64,000 nucleotides of DNA from Alphaproteobacteria bacterium (GTDB taxonomy: Bacteria > Pseudomonadota > Alphaproteobacteria > MPNO01), in assembly GCA_964291675.2 (NCBI GenBank), contig OZ219866.1, positions 3,200,001 through 3,264,000 on the forward strand, written 5' to 3'. Below, piece after piece: positions 8,186-51,961 of this stretch. The first letter of the stretch is position 1; every line of letters begins with the position of its first letter. The position numbers and the translations under genes are program-made. Under the pieces are notes generated by a model. The model did not search any database and was not told the origin of the DNA. It worked only from the letters and a program-made list of their open reading frames with translations.

Positions 8186-8698
8186 ATGAACGACACCGCC
8201 GGGCCTGACTTCCCCACTTGGCTGCGCATCCCCTCGGATTCGCTCGCCGCGGTTGCCGGCGTGCTCATCCTGGTGATGATGGTGCATGTGACCGCCGACG
8301 TGTTCGGCCGTCTCGCCTTCAGCGCGCCGATCGACGGCACGCTGGAGATCGTCGCCGGCTACTACATGGTGGCGGTGGTGTTCCTGCCGCTCGCCCATAT
8401 CAGCCGCGGCGAGGGGCATATCTTCATCGAGCTCTTCACCCGCGGGCTGCCGCAGCGCGTGCGGTCCTGCCTCGACGCGGCGGCGGCCACGCTCACCCTG
8501 TTCTATGTCGCGCTGATGGCCTGGCAGACCGCCATCGAGGCGCTGATCCAGACCGAGGGCGGCGAGCTGTGGGAGACCGCCGACGACCTGATCGTCATCT
8601 GGCCGAGCCGCTGGCTGATCCCCATCGGCTGCGCGCTGATGGCGGTGCTGTTCGCCTGCCTGGTGCTGCGCCACGCCCGCGCGGGCAGCGCGCGGTGA
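8186..8698 (+). CDS. dctQ: TRAP transporter small permease (DctQ)
   Basis: Four hydrophobic helices; ADVFGR...PIDGTLEI and HIFIELF motifs. Confidence 0.88.
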   Translation: MNDTAGPDFPTWLRIPSDSLAAVAGVLILVMMVHVTADVFGRLAFSAPIDGTLEIVAGYYMVAVVFLPLAHISRGEGHIFIELFTRGLPQRVRSCLDAAAATLTLFYVALMAWQTAIEALIQTEGGELWETADDLIVIWPSRWLIPIGCALMAVLFACLVLRHARAGSAR

Positions 8699-13010: not shown

Positions 13011-13283
13011 ATGTCCGCCGAGCTGATCGCCATAATCGCCGTCGGGGTCGCCTTGGGATCGCTCACGGCGGGTCTGATTCTGCGGATCGACCGGCGGATG
13101 GACCGGCTCGAAACCCGGATGGACCGGCTCGAAACCCGGCTCGAAACCCGGATCGACGGCTATATCGCCGAGGCCGGCAACGACCGCCGCGCGTTCCAGG
13201 CCGCGATGGACGACTTCCGCCGGGAGATGCAGCGCCTCGCCGAGCGCCAGTCCCACGTCGAAGGCCTGCGCGCCGCCGAGTAA
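13011..13283 (+). CDS. Small membrane-anchored coiled-coil protein, copy 1
   Basis: N-terminal TM helix and MDRLETR heptad repeats. Near-identical to two downstream copies. Confidence 0.8.
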   Translation: MSAELIAIIAVGVALGSLTAGLILRIDRRMDRLETRMDRLETRLETRIDGYIAEAGNDRRAFQAAMDDFRREMQRLAERQSHVEGLRAAE

Positions 13284-13864
13284 GCGGCCGCCTCCTCGCC
13301 GCCGTCCCTGCGGCGGCTTCCCTCGCCGTCGCCGATGCGCTCGAACCCCTCAGGGTCCGCCACGCCGACCTGCCCGCGACCTCGCAACCGATGTGGCGCG
13401 CGATCCGCGACGCGGCGGTGGGGCAAAGCGTCCTTCGACACGCCCCGGATCGGGTCCGGGGGTGTTCCACTGCTGTCCGGTCTGGATTTTCGACGCGGGC
13501 CGCACCCGGCTCTCCTTGCTCCTCCACCGCCACCACCCCGTCATGGCCGGACTTGATCCGGCCATCCATGCGGCATCCGCGCGCACGGCGATCCGGCTGG
13601 AAGGATGCCGATGGGGCGGGCCGCACCCGGCTCGCCATGCACAGCCCATGGATGCCCGGATCACCCCCGGACTTGATCCGGGGGCCGGGCATGACGACAT
13701 GAGGGCAGGTAGGACGTCGACCATGACCGGCGGCGGTCCCCTCGTCGATCCGCGCCATCCGACAGCTCGTCAAGTAATCTGGATAAGCCCCTATCGAAGA
13801 ACGGCCCCGGTGCGGAGCCTGCGAGCTCCTCGACAGCCCGCCGGATCGCGGCTAGGCTCGCGCC

Positions 13865-17997: not shown

Positions 17998-19230
17998 ATG
18001 TCAACACTGTCCGGAAAACGGGTCGCCCAGCTCAAGCTCACATTGAATAAGCGCAGCGTCGAGGCCCTCATGCCGGCCGACAAACCCTTCATCGCCTGGG
18101 ACGACAGGCTGACGGGGTTCGGGGTCAGGGTACAGCCCTCGGGGGTGCGGTCCTATCTGGTGAACTACCGCGCCTCGGGCGGCGGCAGGCGGGCCGCCAA
18201 CCGGCGGCTCGTCATCGGCCGGCACGGGCGGGTCTCGGCAGAGCAGGCAAGACGCATCGCCCACGAGACGCTCGGCAAGGTCGCCGCCGGGGAGGACCCG
18301 GCGGAGGGGCGCACCCGGTCGCGGTCGACGCCCACGCTGCGCGAGGCCTTCGAGGAGTACCTGTCGATGGGGCCGGAGAGGAAGCCGCGCACCGTCGAGG
18401 TCTACCGGAGGACGGTGTATCACGATCTCGAGCCCTGGCTCGACCGGTCGCTCAACACAATCTCCCGCAAGGACGTCGAGCAGTGCTTCAACCGGCTGAC
18501 CTCCGAGATCGGCTGGGTGGGGGCCAACTCGGCGCTCATCATGCTGGGGGCGCTGTACCGGCGGCAATGCGTCGACGTCCAGGGTCTGCACAACCCGGTG
18601 GCGCAGTGGCGCGCGGCGGGCGGGCGGCTGCACCGCCAGCGGCGGCGGCGCATCCAGCCTCCGGCCGAGGTTCTGCCGCGCTGGCACAGGGGGATCGAGA
18701 AGGGGGTTCGCAACCCGGTGGCGCGGGATGCGCTGCGGCTCGGCCTCTACACCGGCATGCGCCATTCCGAGGTGCTGGAGCTACGCTGGGACATGGTGGA
18801 CCTCGATGCGATGACGCTGACGGTCGAGGAGACCAAGTCGGGCGAGCCGCTGGAGATCCCGATCGTCCGGCAGGTCGGGGAGATCCTCCGACGCCGCGCG
18901 GCCGAGCGCGGGAACTTTCCGGCGGAGAGCCGCGTCTGGGTGTTCCCGTCGGAGACCAGCGCCTCGGGGCGGCTCGTGACGACGCAGCAGCTGAACGCGC
19001 GGATCGGCGAGGCGGGCGGTGCGAAGTTCTGGTTCCATGCGCTGCGCAACTGCTTCATCACGGTGGCGGACCGGGAGCTGATGCTGCCGACCAGTCTCAC
19101 CAAGCGGCTGGTCAACCATGCGAGGCCCAGCGACGTCACCGAGGGCTACGCGTCGGACTGGACGGCGGACCAGCTCCGCGAGGCCGCGCAGCGCATCGCC
19201 GATCGCATCGATGAGCTGATCAAATGTTGA
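17998..19230 (+). CDS. Tyrosine integrase with N-terminal arm-binding domain
   Basis: WDDRLTGFGVRV arm domain. Catalytic residues in TGMRHSE, TKSG, FHALRN, VNH and EGY. Confidence 0.92.
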   Translation: MSTLSGKRVAQLKLTLNKRSVEALMPADKPFIAWDDRLTGFGVRVQPSGVRSYLVNYRASGGGRRAANRRLVIGRHGRVSAEQARRIAHETLGKVAAGEDPAEGRTRSRSTPTLREAFEEYLSMGPERKPRTVEVYRRTVYHDLEPWLDRSLNTISRKDVEQCFNRLTSEIGWVGANSALIMLGALYRRQCVDVQGLHNPVAQWRAAGGRLHRQRRRRIQPPAEVLPRWHRGIEKGVRNPVARDALRLGLYTGMRHSEVLELRWDMVDLDAMTLTVEETKSGEPLEIPIVRQVGEILRRRAAERGNFPAESRVWVFPSETSASGRLVTTQQLNARIGEAGGAKFWFHALRNCFITVADRELMLPTSLTKRLVNHARPSDVTEGYASDWTADQLREAAQRIADRIDELIKC

Positions 19231-19634
19231 GCTCAACATTTTGACTATGCACTTATCGGTCGTGCGCAGCAGGACCGATAAGAGCATTGAGCTGAGCCGC
19301 ACGGCGGAGCGGTGACTCCGAGCTACGGCAAAGTATCCGCTCAGCAAGAGTCGACTACGCCAGGAAGTCACAGAAATGGGCGCGCGGTCCGATTTCATGG
19401 TTTAACTTGTCCACAAATTCGGTTGTTCCGGTGAGGAACTGACGACCGCGAGCGGGAGAACGAAAAAAGAAGGCAATTACATACCTAACTGTGCAAACAC
19501 AGAAACCAAACTGTCCCCAACGGCATTCCAACCGGAGACTACAGGACCATCACTGATCCAAACAGGCTAACTGTGAAAACCGTCCAAAAAAACACCATAA
19601 GCCTAAGACCAAACCCCCACAAAAAACACCTTGC

Positions 19635-19663
19635 TTGACCTCCTTAGATCGCCCTGCTATTCG
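19635..19663 (+). promoter_or_regulatory. sigma70-type promoter of the tRNA-like gene
   Basis: TTGACC, 17-nt spacer, TATTCG with an extended -10 TG. Ends 8 nt before tRNA position 1. Confidence 0.6.
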
Positions 19664-19671
19664 TTCAACGT

Positions 19672-19759
19672 CTAGTAGTGGCGAAAATGGTAGACGCGAC
19701 CGATTACCAATCGGTTAAGTGTAATGCTTGTGGGGGTTCGAGTCCCTCCTACTAGACCA
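19672..19759 (+). tRNA. Atypical class II tRNA: Leu-type body, anticodon ACC (Gly), encoded CCA
   Basis: Acceptor CTAGTAG/CTACTAG plus A73 and CCA; D-arm GCG-AAAATGGTAGA-CGC; anticodon arm ACCGA-TTACCAA-TCGGT; 16-nt variable region with a stem; T-arm GGGGG-TTCGAGT-CCCTC. Confidence 0.85.
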
Positions 19760-19822
19760 GCGGGGACAGACTTCGGCATTGCTGATGTTTGGTCCCCGCA
19801 CTTCTATTTATCCACCTACAAT

Positions 19823-20167
19823 CTACTCCCCGCCGCGTTCGACCGCCTTCAAATCAGTCAACACCGAAACAGCATTGTCTATCAGATAACCCTTGGTCTG
19901 GACCAATGAATCCCCGCTATCGGAAAATACCGAGTCCATCTCGCCTTTCATTCCTTCCAAAGCCTCAATATCACGATCCGCAAGAGCATTGCCGACGTGC
20001 CCGATAAACGAGATAAGTCCATCAACCGATATATCCGAACTATCCTCCTTCAACCCGGCTAATTCCTTCACTCGTTCTAACTCTTTCAAGTATTTCCCTT
20101 TCCTCAAATCTCGCAACAAGTCCTTGAACCAATTAGGTCTCCGCTTTGCTGACTGTAGAATTGTCAT
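19823..20167 (-). CDS. Hypothetical protein (low-GC cargo)
   Basis: 114-aa ORF with a GGGGA RBS, divergent from the transposase. Confidence 0.6.
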   Translation of the reverse strand: MTILQSAKRRPNWFKDLLRDLRKGKYLKELERVKELAGLKEDSSDISVDGLISFIGHVGNALADRDIEALEGMKGEMDSVFSDSGDSLVQTKGYLIDNAVSVLTDLKAVERGGE

Positions 20168-20208
20168 CTTTCCCCACTAAAATTTATCAAACAATCACCA
20201 ATAAGCCC

Positions 20209-20237
20209 TTGACAAAAGCACCATAAAAGCCTATATT
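20209..20237 (+). promoter_or_regulatory. sigma70 promoter of IS1595 transposase
   Basis: TTGACA, 17-nt spacer, TATATT. Confidence 0.7.
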
Positions 20238-20265
20238 AACACCATCAAACAAGGGATATTAGACG

Positions 20266-21201
20266 ATGAAAGCGCCCGGCAAATCGGACAGAGACGGCAT
20301 CACAATAATTCAATTATTCAAGATGTTTCCTGATGATGATACCGCTCAGGCTTGGTTTGAAGAAAAGCGGTGGGGAAAAGACAAAGATAACCCGACTTGC
20401 CCCAAGTGTGGCACCATTGACAAGACCAAGCGCACTCCGACACACACTATGCCCTATTACTGCAATTCGTGCCGGAGAGGTTTCAGTGTCCGCACCGGAA
20501 CCGCAATGCAGAAATCTCAAATCGGCTACCAGAAATGGGCAATTGCGATCTATATGACCATTACCAGCCTGAAAGGGGTTTCCTCAATGAAGCTCCATAG
20601 GGAATTGGGGATAACCCAAAAGTCAGCTTGGTATATGGAGCATCGCATTCGCACTGGCTTTGGTGGCGTTGATCTGCCTTTCGCCGGACCGGTCGAAGCG
20701 GACGAAACCTATATCGGCGGGAAGGAAAAGAACAAGCACAAGTACAAGAAGCTGAATGCCGGACGCGGCGGGGTCGGCAAGAGTATTGTTGCTGGCATTA
20801 AGGGTCGCAAGACCAAACAGATTACCGCCAAAGTCGTTTATGAAACCTCTGCAATGACTTTACAGGGTTATGTCCGGGCGAACACCAAAGAAGGCACGAT
20901 GGTCTATACCGACGAAAGCAAGTCCTACAAGGGTCTGCCCTATCACCAGTCAGTCAATCATACCGCCAAGCAATGGGTTGTCGGACAAGCCCACACAAAC
21001 GGGATGGAGAATTTCTGGTCTATTTTCAAGCGAGCGTATCACGGAACTTTCCACCGGATGAGCGCAAAGCACCTGCATCGCTATGTCAATGAATTCGCCG
21101 GTCGGCACAATATCCGGGAAATGGACACCAAGGACCAGATGACGGCGATCTTCCAAGGGATGGTCGGCAAGAGCCTGCCCTATGCCGATCTGGTGGCTTG
21201 A
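20266..21201 (+). CDS. IS1595-family transposase
   Basis: CPKC...CNSC zinc ribbon, KGVSSMKLHRELG HTH, VEADETYIGG, YTDE and HTNGMENFWSIFKR. Confidence 0.95.
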   Translation: MKAPGKSDRDGITIIQLFKMFPDDDTAQAWFEEKRWGKDKDNPTCPKCGTIDKTKRTPTHTMPYYCNSCRRGFSVRTGTAMQKSQIGYQKWAIAIYMTITSLKGVSSMKLHRELGITQKSAWYMEHRIRTGFGGVDLPFAGPVEADETYIGGKEKNKHKYKKLNAGRGGVGKSIVAGIKGRKTKQITAKVVYETSAMTLQGYVRANTKEGTMVYTDESKSYKGLPYHQSVNHTAKQWVVGQAHTNGMENFWSIFKRAYHGTFHRMSAKHLHRYVNEFAGRHNIREMDTKDQMTAIFQGMVGKSLPYADLVA

Positions 21202-21234
21202 CAAGCCGTTTCCCTTCGTCCTAGCCTTTTCCCT

Positions 21235-21386
21235 GCTATCGCACATAGACGCGCTGAGTCGGGTCGCCCGCTGAATAGAACAGCCGCAAGACCCGGCAGG
21301 GGTAGCTCCCCCGCCCGGCGAATAGGCGGGGTCTCTCACTTTCTGTGTGCGATAGCAACGGCCCGACACCATTCGGGCCGGTTGCT
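21235..21386 (+). ncRNA. Candidate structured RNA/leader, copy A
   Basis: 14-bp closing stem (21235-21248 with 21343-21356), GGTAGCT core, following GGCCCGA...TCGGGCC hairpin, and upstream TTGACA-18-TAGCCT. Confidence 0.5.
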
Positions 21387-21409
21387 GACTGGCGCAATGG
21401 AGGCGGGAA

Positions 21410-21832
21410 ATGAAGAAGATCGTGCTGGCGGGGATGGTTGCGGCCCTTATGGGTTGGAGTGGTTCGGTGGAGGCAAAGACTACCAAGTGTATTTTGAAGG
21501 GAGTCGGTTTTTCCGATGTAGATGCTCGCCAGTCTGCGATACTGGAACAAGTAGGAGCTACTTGCGAAACGATCATAGATGGACGCGCGATACAAAGACG
21601 GCAATCAGATACTACCGATATTTGCGGGCAAGCTAAGCAGGCTTGTAGCAATGTAATTTATTCCTGTAGGCGGAACGCGAGACTCGCACAAGCCGAACGT
21701 TATATGTGCCAGAATGCCACCAGTCATCGCATTTTGCTAAGTTGTCTCAAGACAAGAAACACGGCGGCAAAGCATTGCCGGTCTGCGACAAATTGCTTGA
21801 GGCAATACGGTTGTATGGAAAGTGTCCAATGA
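21410..21832 (+). CDS. Secreted cysteine-rich hypothetical protein
   Basis: Signal peptide MKKIVLAGMVAALMGWSGSVEA, 10 Cys, GGAGG RBS. Confidence 0.75.
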   Translation: MKKIVLAGMVAALMGWSGSVEAKTTKCILKGVGFSDVDARQSAILEQVGATCETIIDGRAIQRRQSDTTDICGQAKQACSNVIYSCRRNARLAQAERYMCQNATSHRILLSCLKTRNTAAKHCRSATNCLRQYGCMESVQ

Positions 21833-22137
21833 CTGTCGTTCATGCGCTGGTGCTTGTGGCCTATAGCGCACTGGCTCAAGAAGTCACTCGGACTAAGATC
21901 ATGTCTTTTCACAAGAACCATTTCTCTTGTGTTCAGACTATGAATAAGGAACGGTTCAGGGGTCGCCGGTTACAATTCAATGAGAACTACGTCTGCCTAC
22001 AGCTACAGGATTCCCACATAGGCTCACAGCTGCTACGTATGGGCGGGAATGATCGGATTGTGATTCATGGAACCAAGCGGTTCTTTAACAAGCCAAAGCG
22101 GGATAGGTGGTATCAGAAGCGGAAATGGGATAGGTGA
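21829..22137 (+). CDS. Small hypothetical, probably secreted
   Basis: ATGA overlap with the previous stop; hydrophobic N-terminus ending in ALA. Confidence 0.55.
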   Translation: MTVVHALVLVAYSALAQEVTRTKIMSFHKNHFSCVQTMNKERFRGRRLQFNENYVCLQLQDSHIGSQLLRMGGNDRIVIHGTKRFFNKPKRDRWYQKRKWDR

Positions 22138-22334
22138 AGGAGGATGAAGGGATGACGAAAACGAAGGTTGTCAAAGGCGAGAACTTTGATATTGATCTTC
22201 AAGCCGAAATCAACGGACAATGGGAAACGGTTGTCACCATTCCTTGTTCATCGGAGGAACAGCATGAGAAACTTTCGAAAGGAATACTTGATTGGGGGCA
22301 CTATGTAATGAATGAAACTCGGTGTAGTCCTTAA
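22134..22334 (+). CDS. Small hypothetical protein
   Basis: GTGA overlap with the previous ORF; alternative ATG behind GGAGG. Confidence 0.45.
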   Translation: MKEDEGMTKTKVVKGENFDIDLQAEINGQWETVVTIPCSSEEQHEKLSKGILDWGHYVMNETRCSP

Positions 22335-22801
22335 TCCCTGTTCGTCCTTTTTGTCATATGTCTTGACGAATCGAAGCTGGTCTCGATCTAACGTGTAGAT
22401 TTGATCCACTTCACCGTTTGAACGGGTTTGGTGGAAAAGTCAATAGACAATAGTCTATTGTCTACCGGTAGGGCCTTGTTCCGTTTCGCACTGGACTTCT
22501 TCGCTGGCTCTGGCCCATTTGTGGTTGGATCGGATCACGAAGAGACAGACGACGCGGACGATGCCCAGTAAACGCAATCAAACGTATCAAATCGATGTCG
22601 AGGTAGTCACCCTGAATTCGGGTCAGCCGGCAGTTCGCCTTGCATGCCTTTGGTGCAATTGTCTCAGCCCCTCCCCGTTCCGGTCCGCGATCGCCCTCAA
22701 TTCTATCGCTCCTCGATGCAGCACAGCTGGCACAGGCTCTTTCAATAGACCTCTTTCGCGCCGTGACATGCGGTTGAAATCGCGGCTGCCGGGGCCTTTA
22801 G

Positions 22802-23134
22802 TCATGGTCCGCTCAAATTCTTGAGTTCTTCTTCGTAAAACTTCTTTCGCAAAGCCTTGTAAACCCGTTCGTATTCCCACTTCCCGGCAATACAGGTCGG
22901 CCAATAAGAGGCGTCTTTTCTGGAACAGTGGCTTAGCCTCTTTTTTCCTTCAGACGTTCCGGTTATGGCCTTGAAGGCTCGATAATAAGCCCGTTTGTAC
23001 GCCTTTTCGGACAGCTTTATTGCCGCAATCATCTCCTCGGCAAGAAGAACGTCCTCCTTCTCGCCGGAAGCCGCTTCGCTCGTCGTCGTAACCACCAACC
23101 CGACTACCACTGACACCAAGAGGACTATACGCAT
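22802..23134 (-). CDS. Secreted hypothetical protein
   Basis: Signal peptide MRIVLLVSVVVGLVVTTTSEA and GGAGG RBS. Confidence 0.7.
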   Translation of the reverse strand: MRIVLLVSVVVGLVVTTTSEAASGEKEDVLLAEEMIAAIKLSEKAYKRAYYRAFKAITGTSEGKKRLSHCSRKDASYWPTCIAGKWEYERVYKALRKKFYEEELKNLSGP

Positions 23135-23158
23135 GCCACCCTCCCCGGCTTGTGTGTC

Positions 23159-23310
23159 GGCCCCGGCTGGTGCCGGGCCGTGTCATCGTCGAGCAGAGAG
23201 CAAGAGGTTCTACCTTTTCGCCCGTGGCAGCGTAGCTACTCCCTTCCGTCGATCGGGCTCTTCGATTCAACAGAAGACGCAACGTGGCGGGCTCCGCTCG
23301 ATCAAGTGAC
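23159..23310 (-). ncRNA. Candidate structured RNA/leader, copy B
   Basis: Closing stem TCGAGCGGAG/CTCTGCTCGA, GTAGCT core and following GGCCCGGCACCAGCCGGGGCC hairpin. Same layout as copy A. Confidence 0.45.
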
Positions 23311-23735
23311 GGGAAGATGCTCCGTCGAACCGAGAAAAGCGTCAACCCCCCTGTGAGTCTTGCGGGATTTCGACGGCGATGCTACGGTGAGAAATGGTAG
23401 TCTCGGCCACAAGGGTCGGGGCACTGAATCACCGATGGGGCGGCATCCGAATCGGTTCACACAGGTCCAGCATGGATAGGCATCCCACGGCAGACTTTCC
23501 CTCGGAACGAACCTGTGACGGAACGAATTGCGTAAACCGGCCAAGCGTGCGCTCACCGGTAGGCGAGGAAACATATGGAAGACCCGCGTGCTCAATGCTT
23601 TAGGGAACTTCGAAGGCTCGAAAGTCTAGGCCATGAGGGCCTTCAGTATCTTTTTCACGAGAACCGGGAAACCGCTGAAGGCGGGATCGATGCCTGGATA
23701 ATCTGGGATCGGACCGGACAGGTCTTGGCAAGCGC

Positions 23736-23999
23736 ATGAGCCGGATCGTACGAAAAAGGAGGTCCGGATGCCGAATTGGGATAGCAACCGATGTTGCTGT
23801 TCGGGTGGCCGATCTTAAATCGGCCGGGAAAGTACCAAATGACGCGAAGTACAGAACGCTTTCTTCCGGATTGACATACAAACAGGCGAACGCTGAAGAG
23901 AAAGTACGACGACAGCGTTGTGGGCCGCATTGCGATGGAGAGTTGGGCGGTAGACCGAAGCCAGGAAGAGTATGGAGCGTCTATAGGATTGACTGGTGA
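23736..23999 (+). CDS. Small basic hypothetical protein (paralog of 24693)
   Basis: CRIGIATDV...RTL..GLTY..A...E...CGPHC pattern shared with the ORF at 24693. Confidence 0.65.
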   Translation: MSRIVRKRRSGCRIGIATDVAVRVADLKSAGKVPNDAKYRTLSSGLTYKQANAEEKVRRQRCGPHCDGELGGRPKPGRVWSVYRIDW

Positions 24000-24234
24000 T
24001 CGTTCAGTCGGCCACCAGATCCCGATACATCAGCCTGCAGCCCGTGAGCGCTGCAACGCCAGTCATCGTCTGCGCGTCCGTCTAAGCGCGCCGGGCGTTG
24101 TGCTGGCCGGAGAACTCTTTGACGTATCGTTCGGGGTACGCCTTCGAGATCTTGCGGTAGACGCATTTGTGCGCTCGTTTCAGCGTCGCAGAGAATCTCG
24201 CTATTCCCTCCGTATGAACGTCCCCGCGGACATA
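24000..24234 (-). pseudogene. IS1595 transposase C-terminal remnant
   Basis: YVRGDVHTEGIARFSATLKRAHKCVYRKISKAYPERYVKEFSGQHNAR, degenerate relative to the intact copies. Confidence 0.8.
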
Positions 24235-24692
24235 GACCGCCGCCGGCCCGCACGGCTGGGGAAAGGGAACGGCGGATACCTGCAAGGAGATGTGGAGGCA
24301 GGTCGCCGCGGACATCAATTCCCTCCCGCCCGACGTGCGCACCCGGCAATACACCTCGGCGATCGTCAAGTCCGCGCAGGCGATGTACCGCTGGTGCGAG
24401 GCGAACATGGCCTCCTGCGCGCGCCAGAGGGAGGAGGTCGAGCCGCGGGGATGCGCCCTGATCCCAGGGGTCGTCACCTATACCCTGAATCGAAAATTGT
24501 CCTGGACGGTGAACTGCACGAACACGACCTTGATGCTGCCGGGGAAGTGCTGAGCGGTGCTGCGCGACCCTCTCACTTATCTGAGGGTGAACGAGGCGGC
24601 GTGTCGGGGGAATTAGGAGTTCTGCCCCTTTCTTATTTACCCGCCCGGCCTGAGCGGGTTCAACCGTGCCGGTGGATCGGGAGATTGGCGAT

Positions 24693-25055
24693 ATGAAGTG
24701 CTGGGTCGGCATCTCTATGGACGTTGCGGCTCATGTCGCCCCGCTCAAGGCCGCGAACTTGGTCCCGGCCGACGCCTCGTGGAGGACGCTGGCCGAGAAG
24801 CTTACCTACGACGAGGCCGTGGTTCTCGAATACTCCGAGCGAAGGGAATGCGGCCCCCTTTGCCGGGGCGCGGGTCGCGCCGAAGAAGCGCCGGATCGCC
24901 ACCTCGGGTCCGTGATCTCCGGGGCGGCGTGCCCCGCCAACCCGAGACCCTGCAACCCCCAACCCGACACCGACCAACTCAAATCACGGCGCTACGAAGG
25001 CGTCGAACACCCCCATGCGCGCGCAAAATCAGGCGACAATCGCTCTGTTCCATGA
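24693..25055 (+). CDS. Hypothetical protein, paralog of 23736 (C-terminus possibly degenerate)
   Basis: MKCWVGISMDVAAHVAPLKAANLVPADASWRTLAEKLTYDEA...CGPLC. Confidence 0.5.
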   Translation: MKCWVGISMDVAAHVAPLKAANLVPADASWRTLAEKLTYDEAVVLEYSERRECGPLCRGAGRAEEAPDRHLGSVISGAACPANPRPCNPQPDTDQLKSRRYEGVEHPHARAKSGDNRSVP

Positions 25056-25652
25056 ATAAGTCGGGCTACCACGTCGAGCCGTACACCCCCCATGCGACGG
25101 CGCCGATGGGCACATGGGGGAACGTCGGCGGCGCACTCTCAGCGCAGACCGTCGCGAGCTCGTTCAAGAGCGACTTCTCGGCACCATCCACTACCGCTAC
25201 AACGTGGTGGCCACCGCAGTCCCCGCGAACGGCTATGTCTACGAGGTTCGCGGAAACCATTTCTACGACACCTACATTCCTTCCGGGGCAACAACCGAGC
25301 GCTGGCGGCAGCGCGCCGATCCGCCGGGATGGCTGGGCGAGGGCAACCGGACGGAGCTTCTGTCCCGTACGAGCGCCACGGGCGACTGGGGCTACGTCAC
25401 CCACTCCAACAGGGTCGAATACCTGAGGGCCTTCACAGCGGGCACGGCCGAGCATACAGAGCCGATCTGGACTCGGCTCGGGACGGCGGCGGAGGGACGA
25501 CCAACGTCTTCGACTGGGCGAGACGCTGGAAGACTACGAGGATCGGGTCCCGGCGGACGATGCGATCGCCGCCGCGGCCGTGGAGGCGAGGCGCGAGGCG
25601 CATGCGGGGTGCACCGGCGATGGCTGATCACATGAAATCCCGTCGACGCCCC

Positions 25653-26225
25653 TCAGCGCGCCGCGCGCAGGGACAACTGCGATGACAGATGGCGCAGGTT
25701 TCGGTGAATGAACTCGATAAAAAAAGATATGTCTTCCATATAGTGCCGCGCTTCGAGTCGCTCCACCTGCTCATACGAGTAGCGCGCCTTATAAACCATC
25801 ACGTCTTGGTCGAAATACTCGAGAATATCTTCCAAAGTGGACAGCCTACGGCGGGCAGGCGGTACGGGAGGGTTGGCGGGGTCTTCGAAGTGCAGGTAGG
25901 CGACCATCTTAGTGTTGCAGCCTATGTCCTGGGAGAGCCTGTTGAGGCGCACCTTCTCCAGATTGGGCAGGAGGCTGTACAGTTTTACCAGACCGTGCGT
26001 GTTGTCGTATGGAAGTTCACTTATCCGGAGCATCAGCTTGAACATTAGCTCTAGGGATGTTCCTAAATTGAAGTGCGAGACCGCCTTCATGGACGCGCAG
26101 GCGTCGGAGTTCTCGTCCACATTGGCCTTTCGTATCCACGCTTCCAAGAGGCGGGCGGCCTCCTTGAAGTCATGAATATTTTGGCAGAGAAACGTGAGGG
26201 CGAGCCTCTGTTCTGGGTTAGACAT
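25653..26225 (-). CDS. HEPN-like domain protein
   Basis: FNLGTSLELMFK...THGLVKLY...ARYSYE pattern; lower GC than its flanks. Confidence 0.6.
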   Translation of the reverse strand: MSNPEQRLALTFLCQNIHDFKEAARLLEAWIRKANVDENSDACASMKAVSHFNLGTSLELMFKLMLRISELPYDNTHGLVKLYSLLPNLEKVRLNRLSQDIGCNTKMVAYLHFEDPANPPVPPARRRLSTLEDILEYFDQDVMVYKARYSYEQVERLEARHYMEDISFFIEFIHRNLRHLSSQLSLRAAR

Positions 26226-26952
26226 TATTGGGTTTCCTTCTCTAGCGCGACCCTGGAAGACTACGAGGACCGGGTCGCGGCCGACGATGCGATCTCCGCC
26301 GCCGCGCTCAAGGCCTCGCGGGACGCGCACGGGGTGTGCGCCGGGCATAGCTGATGGGGGACGCTACATATCGCCCAACGTAGCCGCCCCCGGGCGAAAC
26401 GGCACGATCACGCCGTTGTCGCCGGTTTTCCTCTCCGCGATTTCTCCGTCATCGGTACCACCGCCGAAGACATTTCGGCAAGGCGGTGGAGCATAGCCGG
26501 TCGGGTTACTCCGGCGCCCCCTGTTGGCGATCATAGTTCGATTGCGGCGCCGGCACCGCGTTCATCACCGCATGGCTCGCATGGGTGTGCCGAGAGTCGT
26601 GCGGCAAGAAACGTATAGGCGCCGGGGATGCGATCAATTCGCACGCATGCGACTGTCGCCGGTACCACCATTGGCATCGGTCGCTGCCGCGCCGACTCAA
26701 CCCCGTCTCCGCGCGCGGCGCATCGCGCGCTGCCGGTGCCATCGCCGCCACCCGTTCCTTCCATTCGAGGCGGCGCGATGGTCGTGTCCCCACGATGGGT
26801 CTGACCACCGTGACGAGTTGCGCCCGGCCATCGTCATCCTCCTCCATCGCCTGTGCGTATCTCTCCATCCCCGTCACCAGATTGCGCGTCCCCGCGCACG
26901 CGCCGGCGGGAGCGAGGGTCTGGCCGGGAGCGGGGCGGCCGGGCGGCGCTGC

Positions 26953-47425: not shown

Positions 47426-47488
47426 GGGAATTATATACTTGACTAAATAAGTCGCGATCCCCATATTCAGTGTGAAGGGAGACGCGAC

Positions 47489-48466
47489 ATGGCCAAGGCC
47501 CCCGGAAAGAACCACCGCGAAGGCATCACCGTCATGGAGATGGCCGACCTGTTCCCGACCGATGAGGCGGCGCGGGAATGGTTCGAGGCGAAGGTCTGGC
47601 CGGACGGGCGGCATTGCCCGCGCTGCGGATCGGTCGAGACGGTCGAGTGCAAGGGAACCCCGCCGATGCCCTACTGGTGCCCGGCGTGCAAGCGGCATTT
47701 CAGCGTCCGTATCGGCACCGTCATGGAGGGATCGCCCCTTCCCCTGCGGAAGTGGGTCTATGCGATCTACCTGCACCTGACGAGCCTCAAGGGCGTCTCC
47801 AGCATGAAGCTGCATCGCGACTTGGGCGTGACCCAGAAAACCGCGTGGTTCATGCTCCAGCGCATCCGCAAGGCGTTCGAGCGCGACGACGACGATCCGC
47901 CCTTCGGCGGGCCGGCGGAAGCGGATGAGGTCTACTTGGGCGGGCTGCGGAAGAACATGCACAAGGACAAGCGAGAAGAGCTGACGGGCCGCGCCGCGGT
48001 CGGGAAAGAGGTCGCGGTCGGCGTGAAGGATCGCTACACCAGCGAGGTCCGGGCCCGGCATGTCCACGGCACGGACGCCGCGCATCTGGCGGGCTTCGCC
48101 GTCGAGACGGCCAAGTTCGGCGCGACGGTCTACAGCGACGATGCCGCCGTTTATCAGACGCTGGCGCCGTGGTACGATCACGAAAGCGTCAATCACTCGG
48201 CTGGCGAGTATGTCCGCCAGCAGGCGCACAAGAACGGGATCGAGAGCTTCCGGTCGATGCTGAAACGGGCGCACAAGGGCATCTATCACAAGTTCAGCTC
48301 GAAGCATCTGCATCGATACATCGCCGACTTCGCCGGGCGTCACAACGTCCGCGAGGCCGACACGCTGTCGCAGATGGCCGGGCTGGCGTTCGGGATGGCG
48401 GGGAAGCGGCCGACCTACGCCTCGCTGATCGCTGACAACGGCTTGCCGAGTAGGGCGCGGGCGTGA
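47489..48466 (+). CDS. IS1595-family transposase
   Basis: CPRC/CPAC, KGVSSMKLHRDLG, EADEVYLGG, YSDD and NGIESF. Confidence 0.95.
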   Translation: MAKAPGKNHREGITVMEMADLFPTDEAAREWFEAKVWPDGRHCPRCGSVETVECKGTPPMPYWCPACKRHFSVRIGTVMEGSPLPLRKWVYAIYLHLTSLKGVSSMKLHRDLGVTQKTAWFMLQRIRKAFERDDDDPPFGGPAEADEVYLGGLRKNMHKDKREELTGRAAVGKEVAVGVKDRYTSEVRARHVHGTDAAHLAGFAVETAKFGATVYSDDAAVYQTLAPWYDHESVNHSAGEYVRQQAHKNGIESFRSMLKRAHKGIYHKFSSKHLHRYIADFAGRHNVREADTLSQMAGLAFGMAGKRPTYASLIADNGLPSRARA

Positions 48467-48480
48467 CGCCGCAAGAACAA

Positions 48481-48729
48481 TCAGTGAAGGTGCGGGCTGG
48501 GGTCGATGCCGGCGCGAAATTTCTCGAGCTCTCGCGCAAGGATGCGGCGCGCCCGAGGCGACAGGGACTGAAACGCTTCCTGTTCTGGAAGCGCATCGAC
48601 GATCCTGCACATGAGCGCGCCAACATCCGGCCCCAAGGCGCCGATTAAGCTGCTGATGATCGTCGCCTGAACCGCGACGATGGAGCGAAGTTCCTCCACT
48701 TCGTCGCGCAAGGGCCGCTTCGTGGTCAT
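48481..48729 (-). CDS. Small hypothetical protein
   Basis: 82 aa with a GGGAGA RBS, directly downstream of the R-M gene. Confidence 0.45.
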   Translation of the reverse strand: MTTKRPLRDEVEELRSIVAVQATIISSLIGALGPDVGALMCRIVDALPEQEAFQSLSPRARRILARELEKFRAGIDPSPHLH

Positions 48730-48741
48730 CGCGTTCTCCCT

Positions 48742-51534
48742 TTAGGCGACTCTGTTGCAAACAGACGGTTCCCGGCTGATTGCGGCCCGCCATTTCGCCA
48801 CTTGTAAGCCGTTTAGGCGCGCAACACGGGCGGCGGCCGAATCGATTTCGATTCGCGCCGGGTCGTCAGCCATGTTTGGCAACGGCTCCAGCCTCGCTTT
48901 TCTGGTTCTCTCGAAGGCGTCAATGAGCGGCTGCAAATCAACCGATTTCGGATTGGGGCATGGAAGGGCGCGCAAGTTTTCAAGAGGAAATGCCGGATAG
49001 GTCAGTTCTTTCGTCCGGCGAGCCAAAAGACCTAATATGCCCGGCGTTGAGTTGAGCCATGCAGCCCATGCCTTTTCGGTTTGCGCCGTGCCTCCATCTA
49101 TAGGGGTGATGGGGCACCATGCGCTTCTAAGTGCCATCTCTCCGGTCCAGACCGCAGTCGTCCGAACAAGATTGATGCGCATTTTGTTGCCGACGAGCAG
49201 CCGTCCGGCCTTCGGCCACAATCGGCGCTCGGCATACCGTTCCTTGCCCTCCCTGGGCCGCATACGGCGATCCGGCGTTGTCTCGATAGACTGCTGCCGA
49301 TCGGTCTCATGCCGCCATAGCAGGGCATATTCGCCGGTCATGCTTTCATCGCTGGGGAACGCATCACGGATTCGCCGACCTTCCGGCCCTACATGCGCCA
49401 TGTCGCGCAACGGGCGAAGCCGGTCCCCCATGAGCGCCTCTATTTCGTCAATCGCCTCGATCAGTTCGGCGTCGTAGAACAGGGCGGCAATCCAGTCGCC
49501 GCGCTTCATCCGGGCGGCGGGCCACACGGTCTCCCGTCCCCACTCCGCCAGATCGCCGTTGTCCCGCAAGCAGCTTTCCAGTGCCAGCGCCTCGGCCTTG
49601 TTCGTCGGGTTGCGGTGAAGCTGAATGAAGCGCGTCGGCTTCGCTTCGTCCCTGGCGGCCGTCGCAACGATCATGCTTTCGTGAATCCTGGTATTCCCCG
49701 AGAAATAGATCCGCGTTGGATCGTGTGCTGTTATGACGGTCTCGATTTGGAAGCGCGTCGCCAGCAGTTCGCGCTCCGCCTGCCCGGAAGGCGCAGTCAT
49801 GGCGGTTGTGGGAAGAACCGTCGCCAGCGTCCGCGCTCCGGTTTTCAGTATCTTGTCGGCCAAGGGAGTGAAGAATGTTCGCGCACTGGTCTGGTCTATG
49901 CCTTTGGCGGCGTCCTTGTCCTGCGCCTCAAGCCGCTCAGCTATATCCTGTTCGCGCTTCTGCACCTGTCTCCGCGCCTCCGGCGTGAGTTGCCGGTTGC
50001 GAATGTCGTTCCGCGTAAAGGGTGGGTTCATTATCACCAAGTCAAACGGATCCGAAATGTCCTTCCCAAATTGCTCACCTTCGCTACGGCCAGTTTCAAT
50101 TTCCTCCTCTGCCTTCGGACGGCCCAAATCCAGCGCCAGTTCGCCGGGGCTGTCCTGCAACAGCAGTTCAAGGGACCCTGCCCATGCGCGCTCGGCGTCA
50201 CCATCTGGGAGCACTCCGTGCTTCGCCGTATAGAGCGGCATTCGGTGATAATCGACGCGCGGCGAACTGAGTGTGAGATTGCAGGCCGCGAGCTGTACGG
50301 CGTGGCGGTTGATGTCGAGGCCATGCAACACCCGCTGGACCATCTCGAGATGCACCATCTCAATCGATGTGCGGTCGTTGGTGGTCGCGCTATGAAGGTC
50401 GCGGACGGCGTGTTGTGCGGCCAGCAACAGCGTTCCGGTCCCGCAAGCCGGGTCGATGATCCGTAGCCGTGCGATTGCCTCGGGATCGCGCCAGTCGCAA
50501 TCCACATGTGAAAGGGCAAGGCGTGCGAGCAACATGGCGGCTGGCGGGGTCGTATAGAACGATCCGTCATACCGCGCACTTTCGAGCAATCGGTGGTAGA
50601 TCGGCCCCGCAACGTCGTATTCCAAGGCCCCGAGGGCGTGTGCGCAAGAGTCCGCAGCGCAGCGCAGCGTTTCGAGAACCCACTCGGTTTCCACTTCGTC
50701 AGGAAGCGCGAGCAAACAGGCGAGAGCCGGTTCAAATATCGGCTTGTAATCGACGGCAAGGATTTGCTCCCATCGTCTCGTCAACAGGCTCTTCGCCGTC
50801 TCGTTCGGCGTTGCCTGTGGAAGCGGAACATCTGACCAGATTGCTTCGAGTCGCCGGTCAAGAAGACAACCGTTAGCGAGCATCACGGACGCTATACGCA
50901 GAACCCTGTCATCGCCTGCTTTCGGCGGCTGCATGTTGAGAGCCAAGGCGAGCAACTCGGTAGCCGCCTCGCGGTGGCTCACCCAGATATTCGCGGACTC
51001 CACGATGATCCCTGTCAGCAGGGTTTCTATGTCGCCGCGGCGATCGGAAACGTTACGGATTTCCGTCGCAAGGGTTGCCGCCCCTCCTCGGCGCCATGCT
51101 TCGCCGCCCGCGCCGGCGAACACCCACTCCAGCCCCTGCGTTTGGCGCAAACAGGATGCTATTTCGGGAGGCGTGAGATCGCCCCTGATCTCATCTGGGT
51201 AGCAAAGAGCGAGAGCAAGCCGCTTCGGTGCGTTCTGTGGCTGATCCTTCGTCCACCGGCGCGCTTGCTCGGACGCTTCTCGTTTCGCCTTGTCGCTAGT
51301 CCCGAATTTCGCTTCGCCGAATATCGTGTGAGGGCAATCGAGAGTCGGACGAATTGTCAGGTCCGGCGTCTTGCTCCGCCCGTGGACACGCTGTTCAGGG
51401 ACCGTCCGGAGATTGTGGTCTTCGGTCAATACCCCGGCAAGGATCGTGTTAATTGCCTCTTCCCGGCTTCCCTTGGCCGCCCCAGACTGCCCCTGTCTCA
51501 GCCTATCCCGGTTTTCGCCGTCCGTCTCGACCAT
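48742..51534 (-). CDS. Type IIG-like fused restriction endonuclease / N6-adenine methyltransferase
   Basis: N-terminal PDLTI...EAK (PD-(D/E)xK), FYTT, IDPACGTGTLL, VIMNPPF and a C-terminal TRD-like region. Confidence 0.87.
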   Translation of the reverse strand: MVETDGENRDRLRQGQSGAAKGSREEAINTILAGVLTEDHNLRTVPEQRVHGRSKTPDLTIRPTLDCPHTIFGEAKFGTSDKAKREASEQARRWTKDQPQNAPKRLALALCYPDEIRGDLTPPEIASCLRQTQGLEWVFAGAGGEAWRRGGAATLATEIRNVSDRRGDIETLLTGIIVESANIWVSHREAATELLALALNMQPPKAGDDRVLRIASVMLANGCLLDRRLEAIWSDVPLPQATPNETAKSLLTRRWEQILAVDYKPIFEPALACLLALPDEVETEWVLETLRCAADSCAHALGALEYDVAGPIYHRLLESARYDGSFYTTPPAAMLLARLALSHVDCDWRDPEAIARLRIIDPACGTGTLLLAAQHAVRDLHSATTNDRTSIEMVHLEMVQRVLHGLDINRHAVQLAACNLTLSSPRVDYHRMPLYTAKHGVLPDGDAERAWAGSLELLLQDSPGELALDLGRPKAEEEIETGRSEGEQFGKDISDPFDLVIMNPPFTRNDIRNRQLTPEARRQVQKREQDIAERLEAQDKDAAKGIDQTSARTFFTPLADKILKTGARTLATVLPTTAMTAPSGQAERELLATRFQIETVITAHDPTRIYFSGNTRIHESMIVATAARDEAKPTRFIQLHRNPTNKAEALALESCLRDNGDLAEWGRETVWPAARMKRGDWIAALFYDAELIEAIDEIEALMGDRLRPLRDMAHVGPEGRRIRDAFPSDESMTGEYALLWRHETDRQQSIETTPDRRMRPREGKERYAERRLWPKAGRLLVGNKMRINLVRTTAVWTGEMALRSAWCPITPIDGGTAQTEKAWAAWLNSTPGILGLLARRTKELTYPAFPLENLRALPCPNPKSVDLQPLIDAFERTRKARLEPLPNMADDPARIEIDSAAARVARLNGLQVAKWRAAISREPSVCNRVA

Positions 51535-51961
51535 CGCGCCCCTCCCGTGGTAGGAAGGGCGGACGCTACCGGCCTACGGATATTTAGGCAAGTATATAAT
51601 TCCCGAATTCTTCCCGCGCACAGCTAGAGATCCCGGCCGATGAGGAGGAGGGACCGCAATGCCCGTGAGCGTGAGCACGATAATCGGTGAGAGGACTTCA
51701 CGGCATTCGATGGACTCCGGGGCCGGTATGGGCGGCAATCGCAAAGCGGTCATTAGCAGCGTGATCGAGTACCCGACACCGCACCATGGCGAGCTACACC
51801 CATCTCGCGTGCAAATTCTGGCCGCATTTGACGGAGATTCCGGCGTTATTTGACGGTCCGGGTCCGGTTTTCAGCCGGCCCTGAGGATCGTCGGCGTGGC
51901 CAGCACTCTGGATTAAAGGGCACGATTAGGCCCAGACCTGGGCCGGGATTGAGGATCTTCT

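Follow-up and report, generated by a model that had tools for sequence, protein, structure and literature searches.

Two copies of a widespread structured RNA family, read as a long form of sRNA-Xcc1, and their possible role as two-state translational leaders of mobile genes

The c4 locus of phage P1 carries upstream (a1b1) and downstream copies of the target of its antisense RNA; this a1b1/a2b2 layout and the production of C4 RNA by RNase P were reportedly described by Citron and Schuster in 1990 and by Hartmann and colleagues in 1995. Second-messenger riboswitches, such as those of cyclic di-GMP (c-di-GMP) class I, precede many genes for envelope and secreted proteins. A third kind of RNA, sRNA-Xcc1, is said to be called a trans-acting small RNA (sRNA) in the title of an article by Chen and colleagues of 2011. 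The sRNA-Xcc1 of Xanthomonas campestris is a discrete 88-nucleotide (nt) RNA on Northern blots with mapped ends (PMC2996969), lies upstream of symE in Xanthomonas integron cassettes (bioRxiv 10.1101/2025.06.18.660453), occurs in Xylella in seven copies, five of them in tandem in an island (PMC12189769), and is found upstream of an open reading frame (ORF) in APSE phages (bioRxiv 10.1101/2020.03.17.996009); C4, in turn, shares one operon with its targets icd-ant (PMC8198154). Here, we analyse a 64,000-nt stretch of DNA from an Alphaproteobacteria bacterium of the MPNO01 lineage (GenBank assembly GCA_964291675.2, contig OZ219866.1, positions 3,200,001 to 3,264,000 of the forward strand), hereafter the window, with positions counted from its first letter. 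It holds two convergent copies, A and B, of a folded RNA in front of genes for exported proteins. Both are members of a widespread RNA family of about 160 nt that is absent from Rfam.

An earlier note, made from the sequence of the window, had described for each copy a TTGAC[AG] hexamer, a long closing stem, a shared core, a hairpin, a Shine–Dalgarno (SD) sequence and a signal-peptide ORF, and all of these items were present. Copy A was matched by the family model at 21231-21388 on the + strand. Its promoter (21198-21227) has a -35 box TTGACA (21198-21203) that overlaps the stop codon of a transposase gene and a weak -10 box TAGCCT (21222-21227). The 5' arm of the long closing stem S, termed S5' (21234-21249), stands at or adjoins the predicted transcript start; inverted-repeat analysis paired it with 21342-21357 (16 nt, 94% complementary). 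Segment a (GUCGGGUCG, 21258-21266) pairs with 21359-21367 as the 5' strand of helix P1. The conserved core (21267-21330) consists of helix b (21267-21271 with 21326-21330), helix c (21283-21286 with 21316-21319), an internal loop between these two in which UGAAUAGAACA stands opposite GAAUAG, and hairpin d with the loop UAGCU (21295-21315). There follows a switching segment (21331-21357) made up of the pyrimidine-rich anti-SD stretch J2 (21331-21341) and of S3' (21342-21357); its partner is S5' or, alternatively, 21381-21407 including the SD. The 5' arm of the terminal hairpin T (21359-21380) doubles as the 3' strand of P1 (21359-21367) and is followed by ACC. The SD, GGAGG, lies at 21399-21403 and the ORF at 21410-21832 (140 amino acids, signal peptide, no Pfam family).

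Copy B (23151-23313, - strand; 59.4 bits, E 1e-10) has the same parts in the same order: a -35 box TTGACG at 23345-23340, S5' and S3' at 23310-23292 and 23198-23182, segment a as the 5' strand of P1 at 23283-23275, the core at 23274-23209 with hairpin d around 23239-23232, J2 at 23208-23201, the T hairpin at 23180-23158, the SD at 23146-23139 and an ORF of 110 amino acids, with a signal peptide and no Pfam family, at 23134-22802. The region of the terminal hairpin opens with ACGGCCCG.CACC at 21358 in copy A and at 23181 in copy B. A consensus promoter scan called neither promoter, since the -10 boxes are weak. The two copies aligned with a mean column identity of 76% over 243 columns, and their folds were more stable than 200 of 200 dinucleotide shuffles each (z -4.20 for A, -3.54 for B). 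A model built from three other copies gave 125 bits for copy A and 59 bits for copy B; with filters off, the next-best match in the whole window was 15.3 bits. The proteins encoded downstream gave no BLASTP alignment with each other at E<=100, in keeping with the note's impression that they are unrelated.

The family was found to be large. By blastn, further copies were present in the genome of the window and in 16 of 61 related genomes. The note had also proposed a search with a covariance model. The seed of this model (alignment A8) consisted of three copies of equal geometry with 40 pairs, chosen because MAFFT alignments (A3-A6) lost register in the variable stem. It detected seven copies in the genome of the window. 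Across the order, its 71 matches were spread over 18 of 78 genomes; within the genus, 10 genomes of 11 had matches. A 28-nt IUPAC pattern of the core matched at least 120 stretches in a collection of species-representative genomes. Among the pattern matches listed, 77 of 80 loci held full-length model matches (78 in all), and by their titles these 80 loci belong to metagenome-assembled genomes from at least ten phyla plus a Sphingomonas isolate. The taxa listed include Alpha- and Gammaproteobacteria, Nitrospirales, Gemmatimonadota, Latescibacterota, Binatia, Longimicrobiales, Terriglobia, Chloroflexota, Rhodothermales and Spirochaetia. A blastn search of plasmids returned one Sphingomonas plasmid for the Sphingomonas locus L094 and none for copy A; a search of viral sequences by pattern returned one viral contig.

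Covariation, which the note had named as a test of the structure, was far above that of shuffled alignments. In an order-level alignment (A9; 63 rows, 46 distinct), 92.6% of the cells were paired as compared with 72.9% after shuffling, and double changes occurred in 31 of the 40 pairs. The covariation score was 0.488 as compared with 0.141 for shuffles, none of 500 of which reached it, and slid partners scored 0.04-0.05. A cross-phylum alignment (A10; 77 distinct rows) had 94.6% of cells paired and a score of 0.620 (shuffled, 0.186). All 17 pairs of the closing stem S covary, with four to six pair types each and G-U included; this argues for pairing at the RNA level and fixes the sense strand. 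In single sequences the stem measures 15-20 base pairs (bp) and the stems are unrelated in sequence; for copies A and B, the note had already pointed out stems that differ yet pair. Core helices b, c and d were 93-99% paired with double changes, and the core loops are invariant or nearly so. The apical loop of hairpin d is UAGCU in 42 of 58 surveyed copies. By eye, many of the remaining d loops are palindromes of 4-6 nt (GAUC, GGCC, UUGCAA, UAAUUA), and about a dozen read UCGCU. A kissing-loop dimer contact, for which the data are only suggestive, or simple sequence conservation could account for the d loop.

Helix P1, formed by segment a and the 5' arm of the terminal hairpin, was 95.5% paired in A9 and 91.4% in A10, and its two inner pairs had 11 and 10 double changes in A10. 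Of 118 sequences, nearly all form the T hairpin; its 3' arms vary, and one of its pairs changes from GC to AU in A9. As P1 and T share the strand CCCGRC, they are mutually exclusive. S together with P1 has the topology of a pseudoknot. In 93 of 114 distinct sequences, NCC comes after the 3' strand of P1 (NCCA in 42, NCCC in 41; 21368-21371 in copy A). Other pairings were considered. A pseudoknot between segment a and a GACCC linker was discarded at only 68.8% paired. Segment a with an upstream CCCG was 93% paired and nearly invariant, and a GCUG/CAGC hairpin within the A-rich loop gave a mixed picture by eye. The T hairpin is unlike an intrinsic terminator in that a U-tract is absent in most copies, and a terminator scan called none.

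The surroundings of the RNA are equally regular. In 61 of 117 copies, a TTGAC precedes the model start by 31-35 nt; by eye, most of the others have TTGCA, TTGCG or TTTAC-type variants at that place and a -10 box of the type TAnnnT. Given this fixed spacing, stem S begins at or adjoining position +1. An ORF of at least 45 codons starting no more than 150 nt downstream was found for 114 of 118 copies, 102 of them with an SD, and its start lies a median of 30 nt past the middle of the T hairpin. By a crude hydrophobicity rule, 75 of the 114 products look exported and 34 carry a lipobox; the rule missed some obvious signal peptides because the start had been mis-called. Pfam searches with 36 order-level products gave one match each to YrbL-PhoP_reg, a GIY-YIG domain, bPH_3, SNase, Peptidase_S8 and an OMP beta-barrel, two to CsgG and three weak TbpB-like matches; 24 products had no match, and none of the 36 was a transposase. 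Such promoter spacing, together with SD-led ORFs for exported proteins, marks a leader that acts in cis on accessory envelope genes. On comparative evidence, the RNA is a covarying, promoter-proximal, putative 5' leader family that scores below every Rfam gathering threshold. By eye, the non-exported products at five loci (L122, L149, L162, L022 and L066) resemble glycosyltransferases for surface glycans, which, if right, would fit an envelope or surface theme; the products at L022 and L066 gave no Pfam match.

One contiguous stretch, J2-S3'-AA-T5', where T5' and T3' are the arms of the T hairpin, can pair with S5' and segment a on its upstream side and with T3' and the start region on its downstream side. 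For this reason we read the leader as a bistable translational gate built on that stretch, and hold this model to be probable. Each copy would form a self-contained expression module of a sigma-70-type promoter, a leader of about 160 nt, an SD and a gene for an exported protein. In the open state, S3' would pair with the 5'-terminal arm S5' (17 bp) and T5' with segment a to give P1, which would close the core of b, c and d and leave the SD free. In the closed state, T5' would pair with T3' to give the terminal hairpin, and J2 and S3' would pair around it with the SD and the sequence preceding it, so that the SD would be buried. The two states may alternate in vivo, with translation as the output. 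The balance would be set by the conserved core as a sensor, through a ligand or a protein bound to its invariant part, or by processing, such as that by RNase P, which would remove S5'.

The predicted closed state was examined by energy calculations. J2 plus S3' bound its own start region with -18.55 kcal/mol on average, as compared with -14.52 kcal/mol for non-cognate start regions (better in 38 of 55; p 7e-5). The same duplex (-18.7 kcal/mol) was favoured over those with a shuffled start region (-14.3 kcal/mol; 59 of 71 better, p 5e-9) or a shuffled segment (-13.7 kcal/mol; 61 of 71 better, p 4e-10). At least six pairs between segment and start region formed in a fraction of 0.91 of the cognate and 0.68 of the chimeric constructs (p 4e-5, on pair counts), and the SD was paired in 0.86 and 0.62, respectively. 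In the minimum free energy (MFE) folds of the 3' part, 53 of 58 had at least six such pairs with T nested at the tip, and 51 of the 58 had a paired SD. For copy A, folding the 3' part gave -42 kcal/mol (z -3.86), again with the SD paired. What the sequences show directly is the homology of the copies, covariation in S, P1, T and the core helices b, c and d, and the copy-specific complementarity of S3' and J2 to the start region. We regard the structure and the context of the family as firm and the two-state translational gate as a model that is well supported in silico.

Several points weigh against such a gate. The closed-state fold of copy B (-33 kcal/mol, z -0.57) was no better than shuffles. 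In constrained nested folds of 83 sequences, the mean energy was -80.0 kcal/mol with the start region free and -73.5 kcal/mol with S5' free, that is, the open state was on average 6.5 kcal/mol more stable; open versus closed values were -83.1 versus -80.4 kcal/mol for copy A and -71.4 versus -72.3 kcal/mol for copy B. S persists in the unconstrained MFE fold, so that reaching the closed state may require S5' to be taken away or held. Chimeric controls often still paired (0.62-0.68), because the pyrimidine-rich J2 is a generic anti-SD. The stretch from -16 to +3 around the SD, folded against the whole leader in 52 sequences, showed no excess over shuffles (-17.5 versus -17.2 kcal/mol). The energy tests cover only the sequences that passed the anchor and ORF rules (55, 58, 58, 83 and 71 of 118). 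The alignments were made by a covariance model and are biased towards its own structure. In P1, positions 1-6 are invariant and in A10 were fixed by the search pattern, so that only three pairs can covary, and the energies refer to nested folds, whereas S combined with P1 is a pseudoknot. Finally, the downstream gene set does not make up a metabolic pathway. Sequestration of the SD by just any conserved segment of the leader was tried as a separate candidate and rejected, a signal being seen only for S3' and J2 against the wider start region.

The greater predicted stability of the open state, together with a stem that starts at the predicted +1, would also suit a passive 5' stabiliser or insulator: a stable terminal stem would protect the mRNA or standardise expression in new hosts, and nothing would switch. 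This would leave the invariant core loops, the covarying alternative of P1 and T and the copy-specific complementarity to the start region unexplained, and we consider it improbable. A true riboswitch, in which the invariant core would bind a small molecule or ion, stabilise P1 and thereby open or close the start region of surface or secreted cargo genes, has in its favour that the loop nucleotides are invariant while the flanking helices covary and that one stretch takes part in two mutually exclusive predicted pairings. The family shares with riboswitches like those of c-di-GMP class I a conserved core, covarying helices, invariant loops, an alternative pairing that involves the closing helix and many copies per genome before diverse surface genes. 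It differs from riboswitches in its per-copy variable "address" helix and in the terminal hairpin, whose place and form are conserved where expression platforms typically vary. The downstream genes include no coherent pathway or transporter that would suggest a ligand, and the riboswitch families of Rfam had no match in the window. On balance, a ligand-binding riboswitch seems unlikely to us.

The closest described relative of the gate-like leader is sRNA-Xcc1. In the Rfam search that the note had called for, the window holds only a tRNA at gathering thresholds. In E-value mode, the sole family that appeared was sRNA-Xcc1 (RF02221; cut-off 53 bits), with 26.8 bits and E 0.076 for copy A. Copy B had no RF02221 match at E<=10, and 20 further loci had none at E<=1. 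The best RF02221 score in the family was that of the Sphingomonas copy L094 (38.2 bits), and none of the tested copies of our RNA, which we call the long form, reached 53 bits. Conversely, the long-form model detected 0 of 20 genuine Xcc1 loci. Genuine Xcc1 matches above the Rfam cut-off were present in 24 of 151 genomes sampled from the phylum; the genome of the window had none at E<=0.001.

Despite these scores, the two RNAs have the same core architecture. In the printed Rfam alignments, P1, helices b and c, the A-rich loop between them and the CACC tail are set against their counterparts in Xcc1, with segment a and P1 corresponding to the outer helix of Xcc1. Both have a 9-bp outer helix (GUCGGG.../...CCCGRC) followed by NCC, and then helix b, an asymmetric A-rich loop (AAUAnAAnA opposite GAAUA) and helix c, all of which are present in the long form, where the helices covary. 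Both have a variable segment between the 3' strand of b and that of P1 that is complementary to the downstream start region, a promoter directly upstream, an SD-led ORF 25-45 nt downstream, several copies and a location in mobile DNA. By contrast, the long form has the S5' arm, which pairs with the variable segment as a pseudoknot with P1, where Xcc1 has a local P3 hairpin; it has the extra hairpin d with the loop UAGCU where Xcc1 has a tetraloop; and it has the conserved terminal hairpin and about 160 nt as compared with 88 nt. The local P3 hairpin, the start of the RNA at P1 and the length of about 88 nt are thus Xcc1 features absent from the long form. Rfam membership fails, yet the core architecture is the same, and we therefore read the family, on comparative grounds, as a long, pseudoknotted, cross-phylum form of the sRNA-Xcc1/C4 kind of leader.

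By eye, the genuine Xcc1 loci (L213-L232) have this core as well; in them P1 comes first, immediately behind a promoter, and an SD-led ORF lies downstream. Their second hairpin has a loop that, with the UUUUCG behind it, is complementary to both sides of the SD of the next gene, and this complementary sequence differs from copy to copy. For the 16 of 20 loci in which the ORF was called (it was not in four), the P3 region paired with its own downstream start region with -15.4 kcal/mol and with non-cognate ones with -10.5 kcal/mol (14 of 16 better, p 6e-4). The genuine Xcc1 family itself thus looks like a putative cis-acting leader. The earlier note's suggestion of an unrecognised non-coding RNA or leader stands in so far as this is a covarying 5' leader that no Rfam family claims at its gathering score; it is not wholly unrecognised, being a long relative of sRNA-Xcc1 that its Rfam model touches below threshold. 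Neither the long form nor a leader role is described in the literature that our searches covered; the c4-related motifs of Weinberg et al. 2017 may bear on this.

The likeness to C4 RNA of phages P1 and P7 (immI operon) is one of logic. In both, a variable antisense segment is complementary to the ribosome-binding region of the gene just downstream, in our case on the same predicted transcript, and specificity covaries between RNA and target. The upstream target copy a1b1 of C4 would by analogy be paralleled by S5' of the long form. C4 differs in having no sequence or covariance-model match (RF01695: none at E<=10 in 21100-23450, none at E<=1 in 30 further loci) and in its antirepressor operon, the downstream genes of the long form being exported cargo proteins. 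Of maturation by RNase P and action in trans, which would be expected of a C4 RNA, the only trace seen in the long form was the NCC(A) tail, whose resemblance to the acceptor end of a tRNA hints at possible recognition by RNase P. We therefore considered a processed trans-acting antisense RNA of the C4 type, in which RNase P or another nuclease would cut at the 5' end of P1 and free an Xcc1-like RNA. Its S3' address would repress matching start regions in cis and in trans, as dosage control or exclusion among cargo of the same address; this overlaps with the gate. The discrete 88-nt sRNA-Xcc1 with its mapped ends (PMC2996969), the frequency of the NCC and NCCA tails, the address that each copy has of its own, the shared operon of C4 and icd-ant (PMC8198154) and the resemblance of S5' and the downstream mimic to the a1b1/a2b2 layout attributed to the c4 locus all speak for it. 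Besides the missing C4 match, the addresses differ between copies within a genome, and action in trans would therefore be limited to identical duplicates. We regard such a processed RNA as possible, if rather doubtful.

The mobile setting of the leader was examined last. Each copy lies, as the note had it, downstream of an IS1595 transposase gene on its own strand. An intact gene of this insertion sequence (IS) family (20266-21201, +; PF12762 125.4 bits, PF12760 25.8 bits) ends 30 nt before copy A. Upstream of copy B, a remnant (24011-24477, -) ends about 700 nt from the RNA; it gave 26.9 bits for PF12762 at 24082-24477 (cut-off 27) and a tblastn E of 6e-11, and its C-terminal homologous end near 24011-24036 forms an inverted repeat with the 3' end of the intact gene. 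The genome has three PF12762 matches plus the remnant; all but one of the four are located no more than 2.5 kb from a copy of the RNA, of which the genome has seven. With the transposase of the window as query, tblastn found 13 distinct RNA-bearing places among the fetched loci with an IS1595 homologue within about 1.5 kb. The placement of the transposase relative to the RNA varies, from the same strand upstream to convergent downstream of the ORF. In a relative (G003), two 100% identical 2746-bp IS1595 elements (L205:3730-6475) enclose the RNA, a GIY-YIG ORF and a convergent transposase, with imperfect terminal inverted repeats of 54 nt starting GGGGATTATA and an 8-bp target duplication. By eye, the start of several cross-phylum copies lies some 55 nt into an IS end of this type, and the repeat includes the -35 box.

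These data support IS1595 cargo as a frequent vehicle of the RNA modules. The elements with DDE_Tnp_IS1595, GGGGATTATA ends and an 8-bp duplication around RNA and ORF, as in G003, match IS1595-family elements with passenger genes (ISNwi1/ISNha5-like, as described in ISfinder). Ends of this kind are also present in the genome of the window. Such elements differ from the subject of this study in being the vehicle rather than the RNA, and copies A and B have no detected terminal repeats: searches for inverted repeats and transposon ends around them found none. For many other copies, too, no IS lies in the flanks that were fetched. The note's "IS1595 cargo" thus holds as a recurrent context (13 places, three of four genes or remnants in the own genome and the G003 elements); copies A and B have the transposase genes beside them, with no transposon ends found. 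The modules would be accessory genes often placed inside IS1595-family cargo transposons and genomic islands, and travel in these would explain the spread across phyla.

The strong co-location with IS1595 genes, the copies about 55 nt inside an IS end and the differing ORFs behind one conserved RNA could also mean that the element serves the transposon itself, as a gene-capture or recombination site, an IS1595 guide RNA or a regulator of transposition. Against this, none of the 36 downstream ORFs scanned encodes a transposase. RNA and transposase stand in no fixed relation, being on the same strand or convergent and anywhere from 30 nt to over 1 kb apart; the fetched flanks of many copies lack an IS; no transposon ends were found around copies A and B; and the G-U pairs and the copy-specific SD pairing argue for a function in mRNA. 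In addition, inverted GGGAATTATA ends at 47426-47435 (+) and 51595-51604 (-) bracket about 4.2 kb that hold the third IS1595 DDE match of the genome (47906-48346); this stretch of the window (47426-51604) looks like an IS1595 cargo transposon, and it has no copy of the leader RNA. We consider a role in transposition very improbable. The cassette or gene-capture element that the note had offered as an option likewise found no support: the compensatory changes in the stem, with G-U, are those of RNA pairing rather than of a recombination site, and no transposon ends were found around copies A and B. Nor does the stem resemble an integron attC site: its base is TGCAA/TTGCA, inspection against the attC consensus showed no attC-type core sites, and the compensatory changes with G-U pairs are on the sense strand only.

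Some further features adjoin the copies. A P4-type tyrosine recombinase (17998-19230; Phage_integrase and Arm-DNA-bind_3 domains) stands next to an odd tRNA of 85-88 nt with a long variable arm (19672-19759; 50.8 bits in Rfam, Gly(acc) by ARAGORN). At this recombinase and tRNA begins an island of 45-60% G+C content (19500-26500) in a genome of about 70%, and it holds both leader copies. Between the convergent modules, two small ORFs (21706-22137 and 22134-22334), without Pfam family, follow and overlap the ORF of copy A. A second island of the same genome (L210, C2:1572000-1590000) has three leader copies and an IS1595 gene with an in-frame TAG. Its IS ends (GGGAATTATATACC...) lie at 8428-8454 and 13193-13219 of L210, an element of about 400 bp with the same kind of ends at 13192-13596, and an inverted duplication of about 480 nt precedes two divergent copies.

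As a more far-reaching possibility, to which we give only a small chance, the invariant core would be a sensor, either a riboswitch-like class or a factor-binding domain, present in at least ten phyla, moved on IS1595 cargo and switching on any surface or secreted gene behind it by a self-addressed lock of three partners; "sRNA-Xcc1" would then be its short cis-acting form and not a trans-acting sRNA. If the model of a two-state gate is true, a portable RNA gate would control horizontally moving surface and secreted proteins in many phyla, and the widely annotated and functionally obscure sRNA-Xcc1 would be recast as a cis-acting translational leader. The address helix of each copy, with an upstream decoy and a downstream target, would be a naturally occurring, compact solution to orthogonal gene control. 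With a covariance model of the long form, hundreds of intergenic regions that are now blank would be annotated and IS1595 cargo modules marked.

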